64,000 nt of DNA, taken from Spironucleus salmonicida. Lineage: Eukaryota. A model generated the notes under the pieces. The model ran no database searches. It saw only the letters and a list, made by a program, of their open reading frames with translations, and was not told the DNA's origin. Where the stretch lies: NCBI RefSeq assembly GCF_000497125.1, contig NC_090600.1, forward strand, positions 806,001 through 870,000. Direction: 5' to 3'. Shown in pieces: positions 12,795 to 29,242 of this stretch (the first letter of the stretch is position 1; every line of letters starts with the position of its first letter). The position numbers and the translations under genes were made by a program.

Positions 12795-12876
12795 GACTGG
12801 GTGGCCGAGCGGTTAAGGCGATAGCCTGCTAAGCTATTATACTCTGTATGCGTGGGTTCAATTCCCATCTCAGTCG
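12795..12876 (+). tRNA. tRNA-Ser(GCT)
   Basis: Acceptor stem GACTGGG/CTCAGTC, D arm TGGCCGAGCGGTTAAGGC, anticodon arm ATAGC-CTGCTAA-GCTAT, long variable arm, GGTTCAATTCC. Confidence 0.95.
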
Positions 12877-13985: not shown

Positions 13986-14551
13986 TGAGGGAAGGGAAAC
14001 GTGGTAGGGGCGCGTAGGGCCGCGTGGTGTAGGGTGGAGGAAGGGAGGGAAGGCATATGTCCTGGAAGGGTGCCTGGGCGCAGTCCCGGTCCTGCTGGGC
14101 TGGCGCCGCTAGCACATCGAGATGCAGCGGCATAACCTGTCTAGGCCCAGTCCGTGGTCTGCCTTTTATACTGATGGCCCGCCCACATCAAGCATACTGC
14201 GCTCCTGGATAGGTCGGGTTGAGAGCATCGTACCGCCCGCCGCCGAGATATACCTGCAGCGTACGGCATCCCCTCCTGCACGTTGAGGGTATTACGATAT
14301 AATGTAAATACTTGCGTAAATTTTTTATATTGTTTCCGAAAATAGTTACTCATGAATACATTAATAATACATTAATAAAACCCCTCATGGAAAAACTAAA
14401 ATTGCAAAAAATAATATCATTGAATATATATAATATTTTAATATATTTTAAATGAATTATACATATTATAATTGATTTAATAAACAAGATCGTTCGTAGC
14501 ATTTCTCGCCTATTTACTTTATATAATATTATGATATAAAAATCTACCAAA

Positions 14552-17500
14552 ATGATTCTATCGCATGCGCTTATAGTATTGTATACTGCCGTGGACTTCA
14601 CGAAGCTCAACAACGTCTAGAATGAGAACTTTGTCCTGAACAACAATATCACGCTGAACATCTTAAACCAGCCCTTGATCGACCAGTTTGTTGGGTCCCT
14701 CTCAGGTGCCCGAAACACGCTTAAAATCACGGAAATACAACCTGGGGGCTCTCTCTTCCAGTAATTCGGCGGTAGTTTCAGCAGCGTAAGTGTAATTGTC
14801 GAATTCGAAATCGGGTACTCCATCGTGCTCGCGCAGGAGTTGCGTGGTGCTCAGCTGCGTGACGCAGCGTTCCGTATCTAGAGTGACGGCGTGCGCAACG
14901 CCCCTGAAATTACATTTTTCAGCGAAATCACAGACGCGACGCTTGGGCGCTGCGTGTTCACCATCGTGTGCAACGCGGCTCCCAGCACGTCATACAGGAT
15001 TTTTGGGATCGCCTTTTCTATCAATAAACTACATACAGAGGGACTTGAGGTGCATATTATTGCCAAAAATGCGTTCCAAGTTGCCGGACTCTGCCGATAA
15101 CTCGGTGCCACATTCCCAGCGCTAGTAACCCTGGGAGGACAGGAAATTGAGGAGGTATTTGGTATAGCGCTCGCCAGTTCACAGCCCCTGAACGCTCTGA
15201 TAGTTCGTATTGTTATACGTGGGATGCGCCTGGTCTGTGGTATCGCGCGGGATGTGTGTGGGGTCGAAAACTCACAAATTTTGCTCATTTTCACCTTGAA
15301 AGAGGGCACTACGGTCATATACGGTGTAGCACGGTCAATTGAAGGACCGTTACATGAGTTATAATTGCAGATAGGTGGAATTTTCCGCTCCAATATGCCC
15401 GCCGAACTCGCGTTTTTGGGTGGTGATCTAGGCGCAAAAACAACGATTTCTCACGTTGCGATTCTCGCAGAGTTCAGCCTCACGGGTGGAGCCCTTAAGA
15501 TGGCGCTACTGGCATCTGGATCTGCTCTTGGCGCCGAGGTACGCTTTCTGGCGATGAACGCATCTATAGAGGCCGAACATAGCGCTTTGTAGCCGATCTA
15601 CTGTTTCTCTGCTGCGGTATAAGATGTAATTATCGAAATGTTGGCCATGAATTTCTCGCTACAGGGGTCGATATCGGGCGACTTTGGAGGTTTCGGAATC
15701 GCTCCCTCGTTAGTGGGGTGCAAATTTACGAATTTTACGATCAATTTCGCGTTGAGAATAAGCGAAATTTCAGGCACCTTGACCTACTGCGCACTGGGTA
15801 TTTATGTGGAAGAAATCAGAATCAACAACGCATCGTTTTACAACTACGTCTTAATAAGTTCTGCTGCTAACGCGATCGGTAGCACAATCTTCGGACTCGC
15901 CAAACAGCTGGTGCGGTCCGACTTGAATTATGTGATCGTATAAAACTAGATCTAGGTAAGATATGCGTCAATTTAGGCATTTGCTGGCCTCGCAGACCAG
16001 CTCATGGATGTGACGATTAACATTCTTGTGCTCTGTGGCACCGTAAATTTGCAGAACCAAGGACAGATTTGCGGAATCGCCAGAATGGGGAGAAAATCGT
16101 ATTTTGTGAGCCTCATGATCAACTTTCATATCGAGAGTTCCAACAACGCAGAGTGTATCTTGTTTTTCGATATTTGCGACAGTAACTAGTTCATAAATAT
16201 TGTCGAACAGGCGAATAACATGCGCTGTCTGAATGACGTGAAATACATCATAACCGACACAAAAAATAACAAGGTCAACTATTTTGCAATGCAAGGGTCT
16301 GGCAAAGAACGTATTTTGTAGACCATCAGCAGGGCCCAAATGAAAGCTGGAGCAGAGGTTAACGAGCTCTTGAAAACGGACAAGTGGGAAGTTGACTCTA
16401 AAAACGATGGCCTTGTGCGCCTTAAAAATTTCTTCTCCGTGAAATCTACGTAATTTGCAGAGGAGGCGAATCCAGAAATTCAGCCGTTCACTCAGTAGCA
16501 AACGACGGCCTTTTTGTACATAAACATTAAAAATCAAGAGAACCTCTGCTTCGATAACTGCTAGGGTACATTTGACGGTAAATAATTAGTATGTAAACAG
16601 GGATATACTGGCGTCGGTTGTGAAGAGTTTGAGTGCAAGGTAGATTTCTGCTAAGATGGTGCTACATGCAATAGAGTTCACGGCTGCGAGTGTGTATCCG
16701 GAAAAGGTGGGGTCTAGTGTGAGATCGACCTGTGTCCATTCTGCCTAGGTGGATATTCTAATTGCGATACGAAATTTAGCTTTCCAGTCTGCATAAACGA
16801 CTAGACAACAACTTGTCATCATGGTATTGTAGTTAATAACTTTTGCGCATGTTCAGACGGATACACAAGTGTTAGCGGTATTTGTGATAAATTTGCTTGT
16901 AAGGACTCGGATGATTGCAACGGAAATTTATGTAAGGACGAGATCTGCCACTGTGTGAGTAAAATGGGTGGAATAAGCTGCTAGTTTTGCACAACGCCTG
17001 GTTAACGGGATTGTAAAAATATATGCTCAACAGGTAGCTGCTAGTACGGTACTGCGTGTGTTTATTTGACGGGAAATAGTGGGATTTGGGAATGTTCAGC
17101 GTGTATGGTAGGTCATATTCCCCCATTGTGTTAAGACTGTTTTGTTGGCTATATTAAGCATGGTGATGCCTGTCTTTAAAAATGTGAAGAGTGTCATACC
17201 GGGGACTGCTATTTTCTAGAACCATGTGCTCAGCCAGCCGCACAATGTAATACTAAATGCGTATCATGCTTACCAGGCATCAGCGGCGAAAGATGTGACA
17301 AATGCCCAGTTGGCTAGCAATTTTATGAATACTCTTGCTACCCCTTAGAAGACGAGAAGCTAACCAATGGAGTGTGCATTAAGATTGAATCGAAGACTAT
17401 CTGTTTTTCTTGCCTTGCAGATTTTATTTTGATTGACGATTAATGCATTTTCTAGTGTCTTCCAACAAATTGTATTAATGGTGAGTGTTAACCCGACCAA

Positions 17501-20500
17501 TCTTGTCTGTGTAAACGCTACGCCCTGGGAAAACATTGTGATTCTTGTTAGTCAGGTACGGGTAGCTTTATGGGATAATGCCTTTAAATATGTAATGGAT
17601 GTAACGGAGATTGTTACTATGATCGTGGAGAGATAGTATGTTCTTCCTGCAATGATAATTTTTAAGGACCACCATGTTAGGGATGTTGGACAGGGTTTAT
17701 CAATATAGGGACTGAATGCCTAGAAGTCTGTCACAAATGCTAAGGTGATAGATGCTATATTACTATTTCTGGTAACTTTGTATGTTTGGGCCCATGCTAA
17801 GCCGGATATATCTTGGACGGTTGCTTTACTTGTGATACATCTAATGGGTTTGTGGCGGCTCTTGGCGGATGTTTTCAGCAATGCACCACGTGCTCCCAGG
17901 GGACCTGCTTCCAGACTCCATCCGGAATACAGTGTTCGAGCTGCTCTGGATCGTTCACTGGCCAGTAGTGCGATGTTTGCCTGGATGGTTTTGTCTTCGC
18001 TGAAGGCACGTGCCATACATAGGTAACCGACGATGAATGCTACATTGACGGGACTGGGAATATGATCTGCTTGCAATGCCTCGCAGGCAAGGTTCTCGTC
18101 GACCAGCAATGTCTAGTAAAGTGCGTGCTTCCAGACTGCGCGGGGGAGTGCTATCACAAGGTCCCCTCATACTTTTGCCGCAGCTGTTACTTCGGGTTTA
18201 TATTCCATGAGAACAAGTGCTACCCGCCCACTTCAAACCCGAACGGGGACTGTTTCGTTCTTCAAGACAGAACGTTATGTAGTTGCTACAAAGGGTACGC
18301 TGGACCCTCTTGTGACGAGTGCTCGGAGCTGGAGAAAGGGGGCAGCTGCTACTACCGAAACGACGTAGCCACCGGGTCTTGTTTCAGTAACGCCGACGAC
18401 TCTCTGGATAGCTTCTGCCAGCAGTGCTAGTACAACTACGCGATGCCGCTCTGTCTCAGCTGCGCAATGGGATACGCAATGGATTCATCTGGTGAGTGCA
18501 ACGAGTGCCAGCCTGGTTACACCAGCTCCAATTCTCTGCCTCCGAGCGAGAGAGCAATTATTGGAGATAATAGGTGTCTGATTTCGTGCGCAGATTGCGC
18601 TCAGGGGAACTGCTTCTATGCGGGAGAGTCGATCTTATGCGCGTCCTGTTCGCCTGGCTACGCTATTTCCACAAACTGTCTCTAGTGCGAGGATGGCTTT
18701 GCTGAGTTCGGGGGCTACTGCCTTACCTCTGGTACCAGTTCCTGTGGGGAGGACAACTCCGGCGATACGTATTGTACAACGTGCGGGCCATAGTAGTAGT
18801 CATTCAACTGCTCCTTGTGCACAGTAGAGGGCACTTTCGGGTCGGATTGTAAGCAGCACGCAACTCACTTCCCCGGAGAGTGCTACTAAACTAGTAGCAC
18901 CGTAACATGTACAGATGCACCGTGCCTTAGTTTTGACATAGCATCTAATTAGTGTCTTATCTGCAGGTCAGATCTTATAAATATAAAGGGATATTGCGGA
19001 ACGATTACTCTCCCACAAAACGACAAACTGCGAGGTAATTGCATAAATGTAGGTACTTACTAGGTATGTGGTACGTGTTAAAAAGGCTGGTCTGGAAATA
19101 TCTGTTCAGAATGTGATAAAGGTTATATAAGATGTTAATGTAATACTGAATTATTTTAACATTGTTGTTGTCCGCTATTACCATTATTGAATGGAGTATG
19201 TTTTACTACTCAACTAACCTCGATAATCTGTGAATACTGTGGACCTAGGTATGAATTATTATAAAAATAATGCGTTCAATAAAATATCTCTATTACTAAG
19301 TTAGTTACAATAGTTTTAGTTCCCATATTAACAGGATTTTTATTATTAATAATTTTGGTATTGTTGGTTAAATTATTTAAAGTAAAAAGAAGATAAATTT
19401 TTATTTCGGTGAAGCGAATCATCAAGCGTATTGGGCCGCATCTTGTATTTGTTATATTATCCTAGGCATTAGCAATTATTATTGCAATCCAGGATGTTTA
19501 TATTGGCGACTTTTTCATGTAAATTTCAGTAAATATCTTCTCAATGATACCATTCATACTGGCATTCTTCTTTTTAGCTGTTCCAACATATAAGTAATTT
19601 TTCTATAATCTACCGTCGCACTTCTTTCTTTTTGTATTATCAGCACTAATCGAACTTAGTTTCCATTTCACTTAGTATATAGTAGTTTCTGAGGTAGTAT
19701 AAAATTTTGGGGAGTAAATTTATAAACTGGCTGGACCCCTTATAACACTACTAATGTGTATATGTCTTGCTGGATTCCGGTTTAAATCTTAGTAAAAATT
19801 ATCAGTTTTTATAGCAGTTACTGTCCCACTCATATCTTAGATTATGTATGCAATTTTAGATTCTGAATAGTCAGGTTATTTTTCAGAATCATCTATTTGG
19901 AATATTATATCTGGATAAATGATGGTTACTATAGCAATCTTGTTGAATGGTGTGTAATTTTACTTGTTTGACCTCATTTTAGGGAAATATGGTGAAATAG
20001 AGGCTATTGGACGGCTTGCATTAGCTTCATTCATGGTAAATAGCATGATTGGGCTTACAAATCCTGGAGAAATAATCAATTCCATACTTTAGTATGATAT
20101 ATTCTTTTCTAGTCTATGTACGTAAATATTTTTTAACTTTATAAACATAATAATAATGATGCATATTTCAGCAGTAGAATTTGGAATTAACCTAATTTCA
20201 TCAGCTATTTGGGCATAATTTATATCAGCAGTAGGTGAATTTTATATCGCTAGTAACAATAGTTACAATATATCCCTTATATCTCTTATTTTATAGTCTT
20301 TATCATTAGTTATAGTTTTCGTTAGTTTACTATATTTTAATATAAGAAGCTCATATTGGGATCATCGTAACAATGACAAACTTTCTAAAGAGTCTATAGC
20401 AATAACAGGTGTAAATGAATTCATTAAATCCAGAAGATAATATAAACAACTGTTCAAAAAAATGCAATAAAATAAACTTCATGACAATTTGAGCTAAGTT

Positions 20501-20800
20501 ACACATAATTAAGTACTAAAAGATATGTAATCTAAATTAAATTAGATGAATTAACCATACAACTAAACTACACTGAGGTAAAATACTGGAAGTTGCTTTA
20601 TGTAAGATATAGTAAAACAAAAATCATCTAGATAAGTGTATTACCTTAAAAATAATGACACATTAATTACTAAGCTACCGCAGAAACAAAACAATAAAAC
20701 TGTTGGTTAATTGTAATTGGCCTCAGATTAAATTTGTTAAAGCTAAGATTTATCTTTTCATAGTATTCATTAATACATGGACTAAAATAAATTTAAGTGA
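14552..20800 (+). CDS. giant cysteine-rich membrane protein A, 2082 aa: N-terminal beta-rich domain, EGF/CxxC repeats, TM helix, ~10-TM SLC35F/DMT-like domain
   Basis: Track fragments at 14891, 15365, 15638, 16004, 18062 and 18443 share one frame linked by TAA/TAG; ends AAG TGA. Alternative in-frame ATG at 14531. Confidence 0.85.
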
Positions 20801-22536: not shown

Positions 22537-22618
22537 CGACTGAGATGGGAATTGAACCCACGCATACAGAGTATAATAGCTTAGCAGGCTATCGCCTTAA
22601 CCGCTCGGCCACCCAGTC
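22537..22618 (-). tRNA. tRNA-Ser(GCT), copy 2
   Basis: Reverse complement of 12795-12876. Confidence 0.95.
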
Positions 22619-24081: not shown

Positions 24082-25017
24082 TCACATGAAACCTCCGTTT
24101 TTCAGTTTCTGCCCGAACGCTTCGAGTTCGTCAATTCCCCTCACCTCGGTCTCGCCCAGGCTCATGAAAACGAGCGCAAAGTCCTCGTACAGCTCCTTCA
24201 TTTGCGTGATGTACTTGGACTGCATTTTGCTTCGGGCCCTGCAGAAACCGCAGTCGTTTTGGCAGTCCAGGACCTGGTTAACGACAACGCTGCCGCAGTC
24301 AATATCTAGTCTCATGAGCTACTGGACGAGGCGCTCCGTCTCGTAAAGCGACAGAAACTCTGGAATGCAAACGCAGACGAATTGCGTCATGTTCGGATCC
24401 TTGAACTGCTGCTCCACCTCATCGCACTGGTCGAAAACGGCGGTTACCTTGTCCATATCACCTGCTTCGCCGCCCATCATTTAGAGCATCGGGCCCATCA
24501 TCTGCTTCATCGAGGTAAAAATCGTCTTCATCTGCTTAGCGGTCTGGGGGATTTCCAGGAAACGTAGCGTGTGGCCTGTTGGCGCAGTGTCGAAAATGAC
24601 GGTTTTATAGGTGTTCTGGGTCGCGATATCCATGACTTCCACGAATGACATGAGCTCATCCATACCTGGCATAGATGATTGCGCGAAAAGGTTCATAATG
24701 GGCTAAAATGCAGCATTTTGCTCGGCAGCATTCTCATTTTTGAATTTTTTGGTGGGGTTTATCTCCATAGCGAATAAATTCGGTACTGAGTTAACAGCTG
24801 TTGGAGTATCAGTAAACTACTGCGAGAATGCGTCGGATAAGTTATGTGCTGGATCTGTAGAAAGAATAAGTGTTTTATCATTGGTAAGAGAATTTTTGTG
24901 TGCGATTTGGATTGCGAGAGAAGAAGATGTTGTAGTCTTGCCAACACCACCTTTTCCACCTACAAATATCCAACGGAGGTTAGAGTCGATAATGTGTTAA
25001 AGATTATTTGACGACAT
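24082..25017 (-). CDS. GET3: GET3/ASNA1 (ArsA-family) ATPase, 311 aa
   Basis: [61 protein letters not shown]. Confidence 0.95.
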
Positions 25018-25157: not shown

Positions 25158-26321
25158 AATCGATTATAAAATTTGGATAGATAGTATCAACAAGTTAGAA
25201 TTTCTTGGCGCATACCAATGTCTTGAGATTATCATGAATGCATTTATAAAAGTTGAAAATCAATGAAAATTATCCAATAAAGTATGTAAGGTCATTGCCC
25301 ATACTGCATGTGTTTGTCGTAGTGAGATGGATGCATCTTCGAAAGCAGCCTTATTTCATTGAAAAATGAAAATAGAGAATATAGTCAGACGTCCATCAAG
25401 TAGCATTGCTCCTCAATGCCACAATCGTTGGTCCCTCTTACAATCCTGAAGAATCCATTTTCACCCCAAGTTGCACTCCAAGAGTTTTTGAGGATCCAAA
25501 ACTTAACGTGGTTCTCCTCGCCATATCCGACGAAATTTACTGCGTGACCGCCAACTGGACCACCGAATACATGCTAATAAATTCCACTTTCATAATATGA
25601 AAAATCTTCATATGTGGTTAAAGCTGTTGTCACAGTACCTATCTGAAGAGCTTCAAGAATTGATTGCTCATTCTGGCAGACAAATTTAAAACTTTTAGAA
25701 CGAGTCTTCTCGGGAAGAGAAGATCCATCGTCACACTTAGTATCACATGGCAGTTAATATTATTAATAAGATAAGCAACTTTCTGGGACTGTGCCGGTCT
25801 TTTGAAGGAAATTCTAGACTAAGGGAAGATATCCACCAGTACAGCCCACCTCAAGAGTATCGCAATCAACTAGATATTACTCAGACAGAGGAGTTCTTGC
25901 ATCATCTTTGGAGGCAATACAAAGATTGTCAGCAAGCTAGTGGCTAGCAGAGAAAGCCCAGCATGATGCGCACCGGTTCTAATCACGAACAGTTTCTGGA
26001 CCAACACACTTAGGTCTAAGCTCTGGCCAAGATAATTACTTAGCAATGGGCTTTCCATTACTTGCAAATGGGGCATGCGGTTGAGATCTCTATTTAAGAA
26101 TTGGGGAAAGTCTAGCTTAAAACTCTTATCTAGTTAACTCTGGGTCAAATTTCGGTTTCCAAGTAAGCCTGGGTGTATTAATAAGTTGTTGATACACTTT
26201 TTCAGAGTGCATGAACTACGAGAGCACTGCAAGCATTTCTGGAATGGGCAGTTATACTGGTGTAATGTAAAATTATTTACATTAATTGTTAAATAAATAG
26301 CTCCCCTCCAGTTGAGCAAAT
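25158..26321. repeat. inverted segmental duplication IR2, left arm (1164 bp)
   Basis: Reverse complement of 28079-29242 (paired coordinates sum to 54400). Confidence 0.97.
25385..26236 (-). CDS. cathepsin B-like papain-family cysteine protease, 283 aa
   Basis: [37 protein letters not shown]. Confidence 0.95.
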
Positions 26322-26569
26322 TTAAGAATCAAAAAGTAAAAAATTATAAAGTAGTCTATTTAACATAGATATAATAAATAAATAATCAAGATATAAATAT
26401 ATCTTTAATATACTTCATTTGGAATCATAAATAACAACTATAGTTTTCGTCAATATTGAGATATAAAAAAAGCTATGCTTAAAATAAAAATAAAGGAAAT
26501 AACCATTTATAATGATCATTCTATCAGTATTATGATTAAAATCATGAAAAATATATATATTTGGAAATG

Positions 26570-26738
26570 AATGGGATAGCCCTCATCAAGTTGAGGTTAA
26601 TCTATAAAGATTCCTCTGGCAGGATGACTGTCTCTTACATCTTCCTTAGCGTGTGCTAAGGATTCCATTACTAGAGATACTTTCTATCGAAGATATGAGG
26701 AACTTCCCCTGAGCGAACTCAGAACCTGCCTTCCCATT
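26570..26738 (-). ncRNA. RNase MRP RNA (compact, ~169 nt)
   Basis: P1 AAUGGGA/UCCCAUU; P2 GGCAGG/CCUGCC; P3 CUGAG-UUCG-CUCAG; P4 AG(U)UCCUC/GAGGGCU; P8 GAUA-GAAAG-UAUC (GARAR loop); ACAGUCA (ANAGNNA) before P2'; P19 AAUCU-UUAU-AGAUU. Confidence 0.85.
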
Positions 26739-26812
26739 AAGAAGTGGTGTTCAAATTTTAATTTTTAAAATGAATATATTAATAGATATAATATATTATA
26801 ATAATATAATTT

Positions 26813-27169
26813 TCACTCTAGATTACTTAGGATTTCCTATTGACCATTCCATAGCTCCTTCATATAAAACTCCTCAATTTACTAAATTCGCTTTTCGATT
26901 TTAAACGTTTTTTTCAATAAATGATTAGCAGCTCTTATACCCATCTTAATTTTTTCATTTATACTTAAATCGGAATCCATGTTTATCTAGTGGTCAATGT
27001 TTATCTCTTCTTAAGCATCTATCTCCTATAATGCATCAGCTAATTATAAAAATTTTGAATCTAATTAAGTTTTAGCGTTAAGTGTTCGGGGTATAGGCCT
27101 CATTCCATGCATTAATGCAAAGGCTTAACCAATATCAGCCTTCTATTATCGTTTTAGTGAATTATCCAT
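26813..27169 (-). CDS. hypothetical protein, 118 aa
   Basis: MDNSLKRQQK...ILSNLE*; ends GAG TGA. Confidence 0.65.
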
Positions 27170-27235: not shown

Positions 27236-27568
27236 TCACTAGTCAAATTAGTTGCAATTATCTACCTCACTTAGATCACCACCACTCATTACATAAAGCA
27301 TCATCAAATTTTAATCATGCACATATAATGCCAGATTTTCCTTAATATGAGTAATTTATTCTTAACTTAATAGTTCTTACTATTCTTCTGGTTCGAATTA
27401 CTCTTCGACTGGACCTTCAGGTATACCCAACTCTCCTAATAAATCATTCATAACATCTCTAAAAACATCAGATGGGCAATGTTCTAATTAACTAGTGCCT
27501 ACTAAAGGTAATATCTGTGGTTTAACAAAGAAGCTTTTAAGATAACGCCAAAGGTTTGATATTATCAT
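27236..27568 (-). CDS. hypothetical acidic protein, 110 aa
   Basis: MIISNLWRYLKSFF...NQFDQ*; ends TAG TGA. Confidence 0.65.
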
Positions 27569-28078
27569 TAAAAGGAGTGACGGATCAAATATTATTGGTA
27601 TTATATATATTATTATTATAATATTTTCTGTAACGTAATAGTAATAATTTAATCATGATAAATTTATCTAGTTACAAATTATTCAAAATTATTTAATAAT
27701 ATCTATATAGATAATTATTTTATTTATTTTATAGAAAACACACATAATGTATTACTTAAAAAAAGATTATTTAACCCAGATTTATTTAAATATGAACTAA
27801 CATTATTTTTCATAATATTAACATTCATGAACTAATAAGGATCATATATCATTTATGTTATCATACTGCAATTCTACAAACAGTTTCAGTTGACATTTAA
27901 TTTATATTTATATATATTAATATATAATTTCCAAAGCTGCGATTGCTTGGATAGTTACGATATAGAAGATTAGAAGAAATTTAGTATTGTGTTTAAATAA
28001 AAATTATGCAAGTCTTGTCAGTTGATTGCTTTAAATATATAAATAGTCTTTATTGAGCTTATTAGCCAATGTTTTTAT

Positions 28079-29242
28079 ATTTGCTCAACTGGAGGGGAGC
28101 TATTTATTTAACAATTAATGTAAATAATTTTACATTACACCAGTATAACTGCCCATTCCAGAAATGCTTGCAGTGCTCTCGTAGTTCATGCACTCTGAAA
28201 AAGTGTATCAACAACTTATTAATACACCCAGGCTTACTTGGAAACCGAAATTTGACCCAGAGTTAACTAGATAAGAGTTTTAAGCTAGACTTTCCCCAAT
28301 TCTTAAATAGAGATCTCAACCGCATGCCCCATTTGCAAGTAATGGAAAGCCCATTGCTAAGTAATTATCTTGGCCAGAGCTTAGACCTAAGTGTGTTGGT
28401 CCAGAAACTGTTCGTGATTAGAACCGGTGCGCATCATGCTGGGCTTTCTCTGCTAGCCACTAGCTTGCTGACAATCTTTGTATTGCCTCCAAAGATGATG
28501 CAAGAACTCCTCTGTCTGAGTAATATCTAGTTGATTGCGATACTCTTGAGGTGGGCTGTACTGGTGGATATCTTCCCTTAGTCTAGAATTTCCTTCAAAA
28601 GACCGGCACAGTCCCAGAAAGTTGCTTATCTTATTAATAATATTAACTGCCATGTGATACTAAGTGTGACGATGGATCTTCTCTTCCCGAGAAGACTCGT
28701 TCTAAAAGTTTTAAATTTGTCTGCCAGAATGAGCAATCAATTCTTGAAGCTCTTCAGATAGGTACTGTGACAACAGCTTTAACCACATATGAAGATTTTT
28801 CATATTATGAAAGTGGAATTTATTAGCATGTATTCGGTGGTCCAGTTGGCGGTCACGCAGTAAATTTCGTCGGATATGGCGAGGAGAACCACGTTAAGTT
28901 TTGGATCCTCAAAAACTCTTGGAGTGCAACTTGGGGTGAAAATGGATTCTTCAGGATTGTAAGAGGGACCAACGATTGTGGCATTGAGGAGCAATGCTAC
29001 TTGATGGACGTCTGACTATATTCTCTATTTTCATTTTTCAATGAAATAAGGCTGCTTTCGAAGATGCATCCATCTCACTACGACAAACACATGCAGTATG
29101 GGCAATGACCTTACATACTTTATTGGATAATTTTCATTGATTTTCAACTTTTATAAATGCATTCATGATAATCTCAAGACATTGGTATGCGCCAAGAAAT
29201 TCTAACTTGTTGATACTATCTATCCAAATTTTATAATCGATT
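28079..29242. repeat. inverted segmental duplication IR2, right arm
   Basis: Reverse complement of 25158-26321. Confidence 0.97.
28164..29015 (+). CDS. cathepsin B-like cysteine protease, copy 2
   Basis: MLAVLSQ...; catalytic Gln (encoded by TAG), Cys, His and Asn all present. Confidence 0.95.

Follow-up and report, generated by a model that had tools for sequence, protein, structure and literature searches.

RNase MRP cuts ribosomal RNA precursors. Its RNA is described as having three signatures: P5 lies beside CR-I, P8 is capped by a GARAR pentaloop, and CR-IV has six nucleotides (PMC13184271; here and below, papers are cited for their accessible text). The GARAR loop is treated in the literature as an MRP signature, in part as one that is unique to MRP (PMC13184271, PMC1796607, PMC3737539), and an AnAGUnA consensus lies 0-3 nt before P2' in MRP RNA (PMC1796607). 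The closest described systems come from two reduced genomes. Giardia intestinalis, a diplomonad, has an MRP RNA with a short P3 that lacks an internal loop and with a CR-IV of the ANAGNNA type; its assignment was computational and backed by transcript contigs, and the RNA had been missed by the then-standard models (PMC3228867). Our candidate resembles it in each of these respects. The MRP RNA of the microsporidian Encephalitozoon cuniculi is similar to the candidate in its reduced P3 and 3' domain and in a C-rich motif near its start (PMC5499648).

Here we describe a fish-parasite protist, Spironucleus salmonicida, as the carrier of a candidate RNase MRP RNA gene. The analysis covered a stretch of 64 kb (referred to as the window), for which a first-pass annotation made from the letters alone had proposed an RNase MRP RNA. 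That assignment is supported, partly on grounds other than those first given.

A candidate RNase MRP RNA gene in the spacer of an inverted repeat

The candidate gene (26570-26738, minus strand) is supported by folding, by a descriptor search, by its single copy and by contigs in two of four sequencing runs. Read from 26738 to 26570, it measures 169 nt from P1 5' to P1 3' (predicted ends), which is as small as the smallest known versions. DNA, Rfam and pattern searches of the genome (14.5 Mb, 42 contigs) found the candidate DNA in a single copy. Its G+C content is 43%, versus 18% and 11% in its flanks.

The gene lies in a spacer of 1743 nt, bounded by perfect inverted arms at 25158-26328 and 28072-29242. 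A papain-family (cathepsin) gene lies inside the left arm, and the right arm holds a cathepsin gene at 28164-29015 (plus strand). Mapping of the arms and the Pfam match of the papain-family gene confirm that the candidate is situated between cathepsin repeats, as had been claimed. Two orphan genes share its spacer and strand and lie upstream of it, one of 118 aa (26813-27169, minus strand) and one of 110 aa (27236-27568, minus strand); neither gave a Pfam family or a usable Atlas match. An ArsA/GET3-type ATPase gene (24082-25017, minus strand; Pfam PF02374, E 3e-93) adjoins the left cathepsin arm. The window reads sensibly in genetic code 6, with genes that end in AGTGA-type stops and with C-rich motifs preceding the starts; AGTGA-type stops and C-rich motifs before start codons have both been described for S. 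salmonicida (PMC3916229).

Within the 64 kb, inverted arms with 100% identity enclose a unique spacer in three places. Besides the pair at 25158-26328/28072-29242 (arms of 1171 nt), these are 11561-14303/21110-23852 (2743 nt) and 51215-52513/56868-58166 (1299 nt). The largest repeat holds a tRNA gene in each of its arms (12795-12876, plus strand; 22537-22618, minus strand). These two genes are identical; they have a long variable arm, and their anticodon, read by eye, is GCU (Ser). A cysteine-rich protein of 2089 aa with several predicted membrane-like stretches toward its C-terminus is encoded at 14531-20800 (plus strand), and part of it recurs 18.8 kb downstream at about 90% identity.

Structure of the predicted RNA

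All helices and motifs named in the first-pass annotation were found on the minus strand where it had placed them. The order along this strand is P1, P2, P3, CR-I, P5, P8, P9, P10, ACAGUCA, P2', P19, CR-V and P1', with the core helices P1, P2, P3 and P19 in the sequence that the RNase MRP RNA family requires. P1 consists of 7 bp between 26732-26738 and 26570-26576 (pair probabilities 0.54-1.0), and P2 of six Watson-Crick pairs between 26725-26730 and its 3' strand P2' at 26618-26623 (about 0.65). P3 (26709-26722) is a single 5-bp hairpin with a UUCG loop and no internal loop. CR-I with the 5' strand of P4 occupies 26696-26708, and CR-V with the 3' strand 26578-26586. Between them the P4 pseudoknot typical of the family can form, with its bulged U: A26704-U26578, G26703-C26579, the bulged U26702 and then 5-6 more pairs. 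The UCCUC/GAGGG version of P4 had been called a compensatory variation; this was gauged solely against CCCC/GGGG, which we take to be the P4 consensus, and not against homologs. A P4 other than CCCC is not unique, because the MRP primer for E. cuniculi has a CCUC variant in CR-I (PMC5499648).

Two stems that the first list of elements lacked, P5 and P9, were found as well. The 5' strand of P5 (26691-26696) follows right after P4 and pairs with 26637-26642, so that P5 stands directly beside CR-I as in MRP RNA, though 5-6 bp are possible rather than 3. At this P4/P5 junction the register is ambiguous by one base: the base one downstream of P5, which forms the +4 anchor and is a pyrimidine by the MRP rule (PMC13184271), is U26637 if P5 starts at 26695 and A26636 if it starts at 26696. 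The P8 hairpin (26676-26688; probabilities about 0.75) carries a GAAAG pentaloop of the GARAR type at 26680-26684, and the P9 hairpin (26664-26675; 0.83-0.92) a GUAA tetraloop. The ACAGUCA word (26625-26631) lies one base before P2', and the six nucleotides of CR-IV (26624-26629) abut P2'. In the P19 hairpin (26593-26616) the outer 4 bp have a probability of 0.2 and the inner 5 bp of 0.64-0.87. All of the catalytic domain (P1, P2, P3, P19, the P4 pseudoknot and CR-I/IV/V) can thus form from this sequence, together with P5, P8 and P9, and the specificity domain is cut down to a single 8-bp hairpin, P10 (26643-26662). In the centroid of the free fold P1, P2, P3, P5, P8, P9 and P10 are already present, as is P19 in its inner part.

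Folding statistics and searches for related sequences

The free fold has a z-score of -3.14, and one of 200 shuffles was equally stable. We built a five-level descriptor from the family rules; it was written after the sequence had been seen, and the significance figures therefore lean towards the favourable side and are somewhat overstated. With this reservation, 17 sites in the window passed the first level and a single one, the candidate, passed all five, while shuffled windows held on average 0.034 full-descriptor sites each (1,946 shuffles). When the locus itself was shuffled 20,000 times, no version passed level three. A pattern combining CR-I and GARAR gave 29 matches in the genome versus 25 for the reversed control, which alone is chance level; five of these matches pass level one, and the candidate locus alone goes beyond it.

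In Rfam searches of the window and the locus, the candidate had no match at gathering thresholds or at E values up to 10. The RNase_MRP model in particular is silent at the locus, and the gene is easily missed, as had been foretold. The cut-off of RF00030, 50 bits, is a curation threshold and not a biological feature. The sole genome-wide match of this model lies elsewhere than the candidate (L002, 9.9 bits, E 7.85) and is noise.

No homolog of the candidate was found among at least 120 metagenome loci that match the pattern, and none of these passed the strict descriptor. One of 80 (L048) passed all levels of a loose descriptor and was judged a chance match. With a model built from the candidate, the best metagenome scores were 11.3 bits in the first 80 loci and 12.7 bits in the other 40; the latter locus (L135) proved on inspection to have no CR-I and was likewise put down to chance.

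Comparison with the RNase P RNA of the same genome

A separate RNase P RNA is encoded in the genome and scores 45.6 bits with RF00009 (cut-off 28). It is present at G000:C6:1002776-1002979 (L003, minus strand) and on G000:C31 (L004:1510-1699), two loci that are identical over 3204 of 3204 bases and represent either a true duplicate or an assembly duplicate. Between its P1 ends this RNA measures about 190 nt. Its CR-I word is tandemly repeated, and the segment between CR-II and CR-III is very short. The P8 stem has 4 bp and is closed by a pentaloop of the GARAR type, GAGAG (L004:1566-1578; probabilities 0.94-0.98). In the Rfam alignment a 3-bp stem follows one base after P4, to which the folding probabilities give no support.

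The two RNAs have the same layout of the catalytic domain, common P3 arms and a P8 loop of the GARAR type. The identity at P3 takes in the flanks of the arms, with 7 common bases on the 5' side and, counting the first bases of CR-I, 10 on the 3' side; a P3 sequence common to P and MRP RNA has been described in Giardia and Trichomonas (PMC3228867). In contrast, the RNase P RNA carries CR-II, CR-III, a CR-IV of 8 nt before P2' and a P4 of the GGUCUGA/UCAGAC type, none of which is present in the candidate. CR-IV of the candidate has 6 nt, CR-II is missing, and the only word that resembles CR-III sits within the P9 stem. The candidate shows all three MRP signatures (PMC13184271), and its ACAGUCA is an exact fit to the AnAGUnA consensus (PMC1796607).

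According to the first-pass annotation, the GARAR loop and the ANAGNNA word both distinguish MRP from RNase P RNA. The latter holds here, the word being absent from the genome's RNase P RNA. The former fails, since the P8 of that RNA has its GAGAG loop. What separates the two RNAs in this genome is the length of CR-IV, the presence of CR-II/III and the sequence of P4, and not the GARAR loop; of the three published signatures, only CR-IV length (with the loss of CR-II/III) divides P from MRP cleanly. The GAGAG loop itself was seen in one genome; it may be a trait of the lineage or may have arisen by chance, for which the odds at five given positions are about 1 in 256.

Predicted protein partners and a possible substrate

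A very short Pop1 of 464 aa is encoded on G000:C3 (L005:1453-2847; Pfam E 3.4e-9), of which Pfam detects the N-terminal domain only. In an alignment with yeast Pop1 (E 0.0007), Tyr44 stands at the position of His103, counted along the alignment. The substrate anchor of Pop1 is drawn from a conserved set of His, Tyr or Phe (PMC13184271). Rpp29/Pop4, like Pop1 a subunit shared with RNase P, is encoded in the genome too. For the MRP-specific subunits RMP64/Rmp1 and RMP24/Snm1, family searches with NEPRO_N (PF14780), RMP1 (PF20945) and Rpr2 (PF04032) gave no match, nor was there one for Pop5 and Rpp30. Since Pop5 has been reported in Giardia (PMC1636426), these blanks likely reflect insensitivity of the searches and not absence of the subunits.

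Measured from the Rfam end of 18S rRNA to that of 5.8S rRNA, ITS1 is about 48 nt long (L156:1637-1684 on G000:C10, minus strand) and has an A/U/C-rich stretch at its 5' side and a UUCG-capped hairpin. The 5.8S rRNA scores under the Rfam cut-off (35.8 versus 42 bits). ITS1 may plausibly be the substrate of the predicted RNase MRP. Yeast-type substrate triads (AUC, CUC and CAC; PMC3737539) do occur in it, but they are too short to count.

Probable transcription of the locus

Four public runs from one study hold the spacer. Their origin from RNA is a guess, and their contigs give neither strand nor ends nor level. In all four runs contigs cover the two orphan genes, spanning both end to end and little else, as expected of RNA. 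At the candidate locus, run X1 has a 161-nt contig (26568-26728) that is close to the predicted RNA and stops at most 2 bases from the P1 end. A 240-nt contig of run X2 (26486-26725) extends 84 nt beyond P1'; it fits a 3'-extended precursor or read-through, and it also spans the stop codon of an overlapping ORF. No contig at the locus was found in runs X3 and X4, which is evidence neither way. Contigs in two of four probable RNA runs thus make transcription of the candidate probable.

A C-rich, promoter-like motif with a putative promoter function (26739-26749, minus strand) abuts the gene upstream. Similar motifs stand upstream of the RNase P RNA gene and of the window's protein genes, and a C-rich motif has been noted at microsporidian ncRNA genes (PMC5499648). 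This common occurrence at MRP, P RNA and protein genes suggests, by analogy, that the motif may be an mRNA-type promoter which also serves the genes of the two RNAs.

Alternative explanations

As the first-pass annotation had pointed out, the gene overlaps an ATG ORF (26516-26737, minus strand; 73 aa in code 6), which starts inside P1 and which we too judge to be spurious. Its concern that the locus could be annotated as protein seems not to have come true: the ORF is missing from the protein collection, in which four of the four neighbouring genes are found. Could the transcript nevertheless be the mRNA of this ORF, the RNA structure being incidental or secondary? The ATG comes just behind the C-rich motif in a TAATG context like that of the neighbouring genes, and the X2 contig takes in the stop codon and a further 30 nt. 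However, the protein is absent from the collection, it has no Pfam match, its codon-usage z-score is 0.78 as against 2.4-6.7 in the four neighbours (which are within the training set), its stop context is AATGA and not the usual AGTGA, the six frames of the window hold 277 ATG-TGA ORFs of at least this size, and the X1 contig ends at 26568, no more than two bases away from where P1 ends. We therefore regard an mRNA as extremely improbable. Equally improbable is an MRP copy that has decayed or is not in use, or an arrangement due to chance, to which one might attribute the low depth of the contigs (3.6-8.9 versus 34-213 in neighbours, although contig depth cannot rank genes), their lack in two of four runs and the missing Rfam score. 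Every helix is intact, the gene is single-copy, shuffles fail to recreate the arrangement, and among the 29 pattern matches no other locus passes the descriptor.

A more serious question is whether the candidate is a second RNA of the RNase P type, or a P-derived paralogue with a substrate other than pre-rRNA. The P3 arms, the GARAR-capped P8 and the CR-I-adjacent stem are common to both RNAs, and MRP-specific proteins escaped detection in the family searches. In addition, the candidate-built model puts the P RNA first of 53 hits in a full-length alignment, with 11.7 bits and an E value of 0.32. This match is not significant alone, because a chance metagenome match reached 12.7 bits, and a MAFFT alignment of the candidate with the RNase P RNA did not bring the homologous parts together. 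Against an RNase P RNA speak the lack of the tRNA-binding CR-II/III T-loops, the short CR-IV, the ACAGUCA of MRP type and a CR-I/V unlike the P sequence; moreover RF00009 has no match at the candidate locus, while it readily finds the genome's own RNase P RNA. The suspicion that the RNA fits RNase P better than MRP is thus not borne out, and we consider an RNase P-type RNA or paralogue very unlikely. Given a separate canonical RNase P RNA, a CR-IV of six nucleotides, no CR-II/III and P3 arms in common with the P RNA, the candidate is best taken as the MRP partner, and we are highly confident that this hexamitid diplomonad encodes the catalytic RNA of its RNase MRP at this locus, in a single gene.

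Discussion

As such, the MRP RNA would have a C-rich promoter of its own, similar to those of protein genes, and would assemble with Pop1 and Rpp29, both common to RNase P. If the human and yeast enzymes are a guide, the GAAAG loop of P8 might dock on the P4 minor groove, N6 of CR-IV (C26626) might stack on substrate position -2 and Tyr44 of Pop1 might floor the +4 pocket. By the same analogy, the P4 centre would cut pre-rRNA where it is single-stranded, with the ITS1 of roughly 48 nt as the most likely site. P3, short and devoid of an internal loop, suggests that Rpp20/Rpp25 may not be bound, as has been proposed in Giardia and microsporidia.

It might even be possible that the two RNAs form a stripped P/MRP pair with the same protein-facing surface (the P3 arms in common, the GARAR-capped P8 and the CR-I-adjacent stem), which would share a very small set of proteins without RMP64/RMP24. 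The RNA alone would then choose the substrate, by the length of CR-IV and by whether CR-II/III are present; C-rich promoters of the mRNA type would drive both genes, and the MRP RNA would be trimmed from a 3'-extended precursor. We consider this scenario rather unlikely. If it were true, GARAR could no longer count as unique to MRP, and the pair would be a minimal system in which to study how a ribozyme that cuts tRNA becomes one that cuts rRNA.

On our preferred reading, a conventional RNase MRP RNA, the P and MRP RNAs of one reduced genome put the three published MRP signatures to a natural test. The clean split in CR-IV favours the view that CR-IV is matched to the substrate, and it warns against the use of GARAR alone in annotation. 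That a diplomonad has MRP was to be expected, so that the surprise is moderate. In the distribution of RNase MRP the candidate closes a gap: an MRP RNA had been predicted for Giardia, and for hexamitids we found none. We came across no printed report of a hexamitid MRP RNA, although the alignment figures of PMC13184271 are not searchable and might contain a hexamitid; the accessible text of a paper on Spironucleus snRNAs (PMC6679479) makes no mention of MRP or RNase P. The candidate adds to a known RNA family; for hexamitids it is apparently unreported, and Rfam does not detect it. It can serve as a seed for MRP RNA searches in Hexamita, Trepomonas and other fornicates.

Compared with human RMRP and yeast NME1, the candidate shares a P5 adjacent to CR-I, GARAR on P8, a CR-IV of 6 nt and an aromatic Pop1 anchor (RF00030; PMC13184271). 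It differs in being about 100 nt shorter than the 266-position model RF00030, in lacking a P3 internal loop and P12, in a P5 that can be extended to 5-6 bp and in N6 of CR-IV, which is C in the candidate and U in the human and yeast RNAs (PMC13184271). Proteins of the RMP64/RMP24 type were not detected in its genome. The MRP RNA of Giardia is 189 nt long by its published coordinates, versus 169 nt here, a comparison made by description and not by alignment (PMC3228867). That of E. cuniculi measures 170 nt and, unlike the candidate, has been validated by RACE and is in Rfam; it belongs to an unrelated lineage, and its similarity is one of convergent reduction (PMC5499648). Because of these 170 nt, the 169 nt of the candidate are no clear size record. 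Together with the microsporidian RNAs, they rather indicate a seeming lower size limit that was reached twice independently, which helps to define the minimal functional core of RNase MRP RNA.
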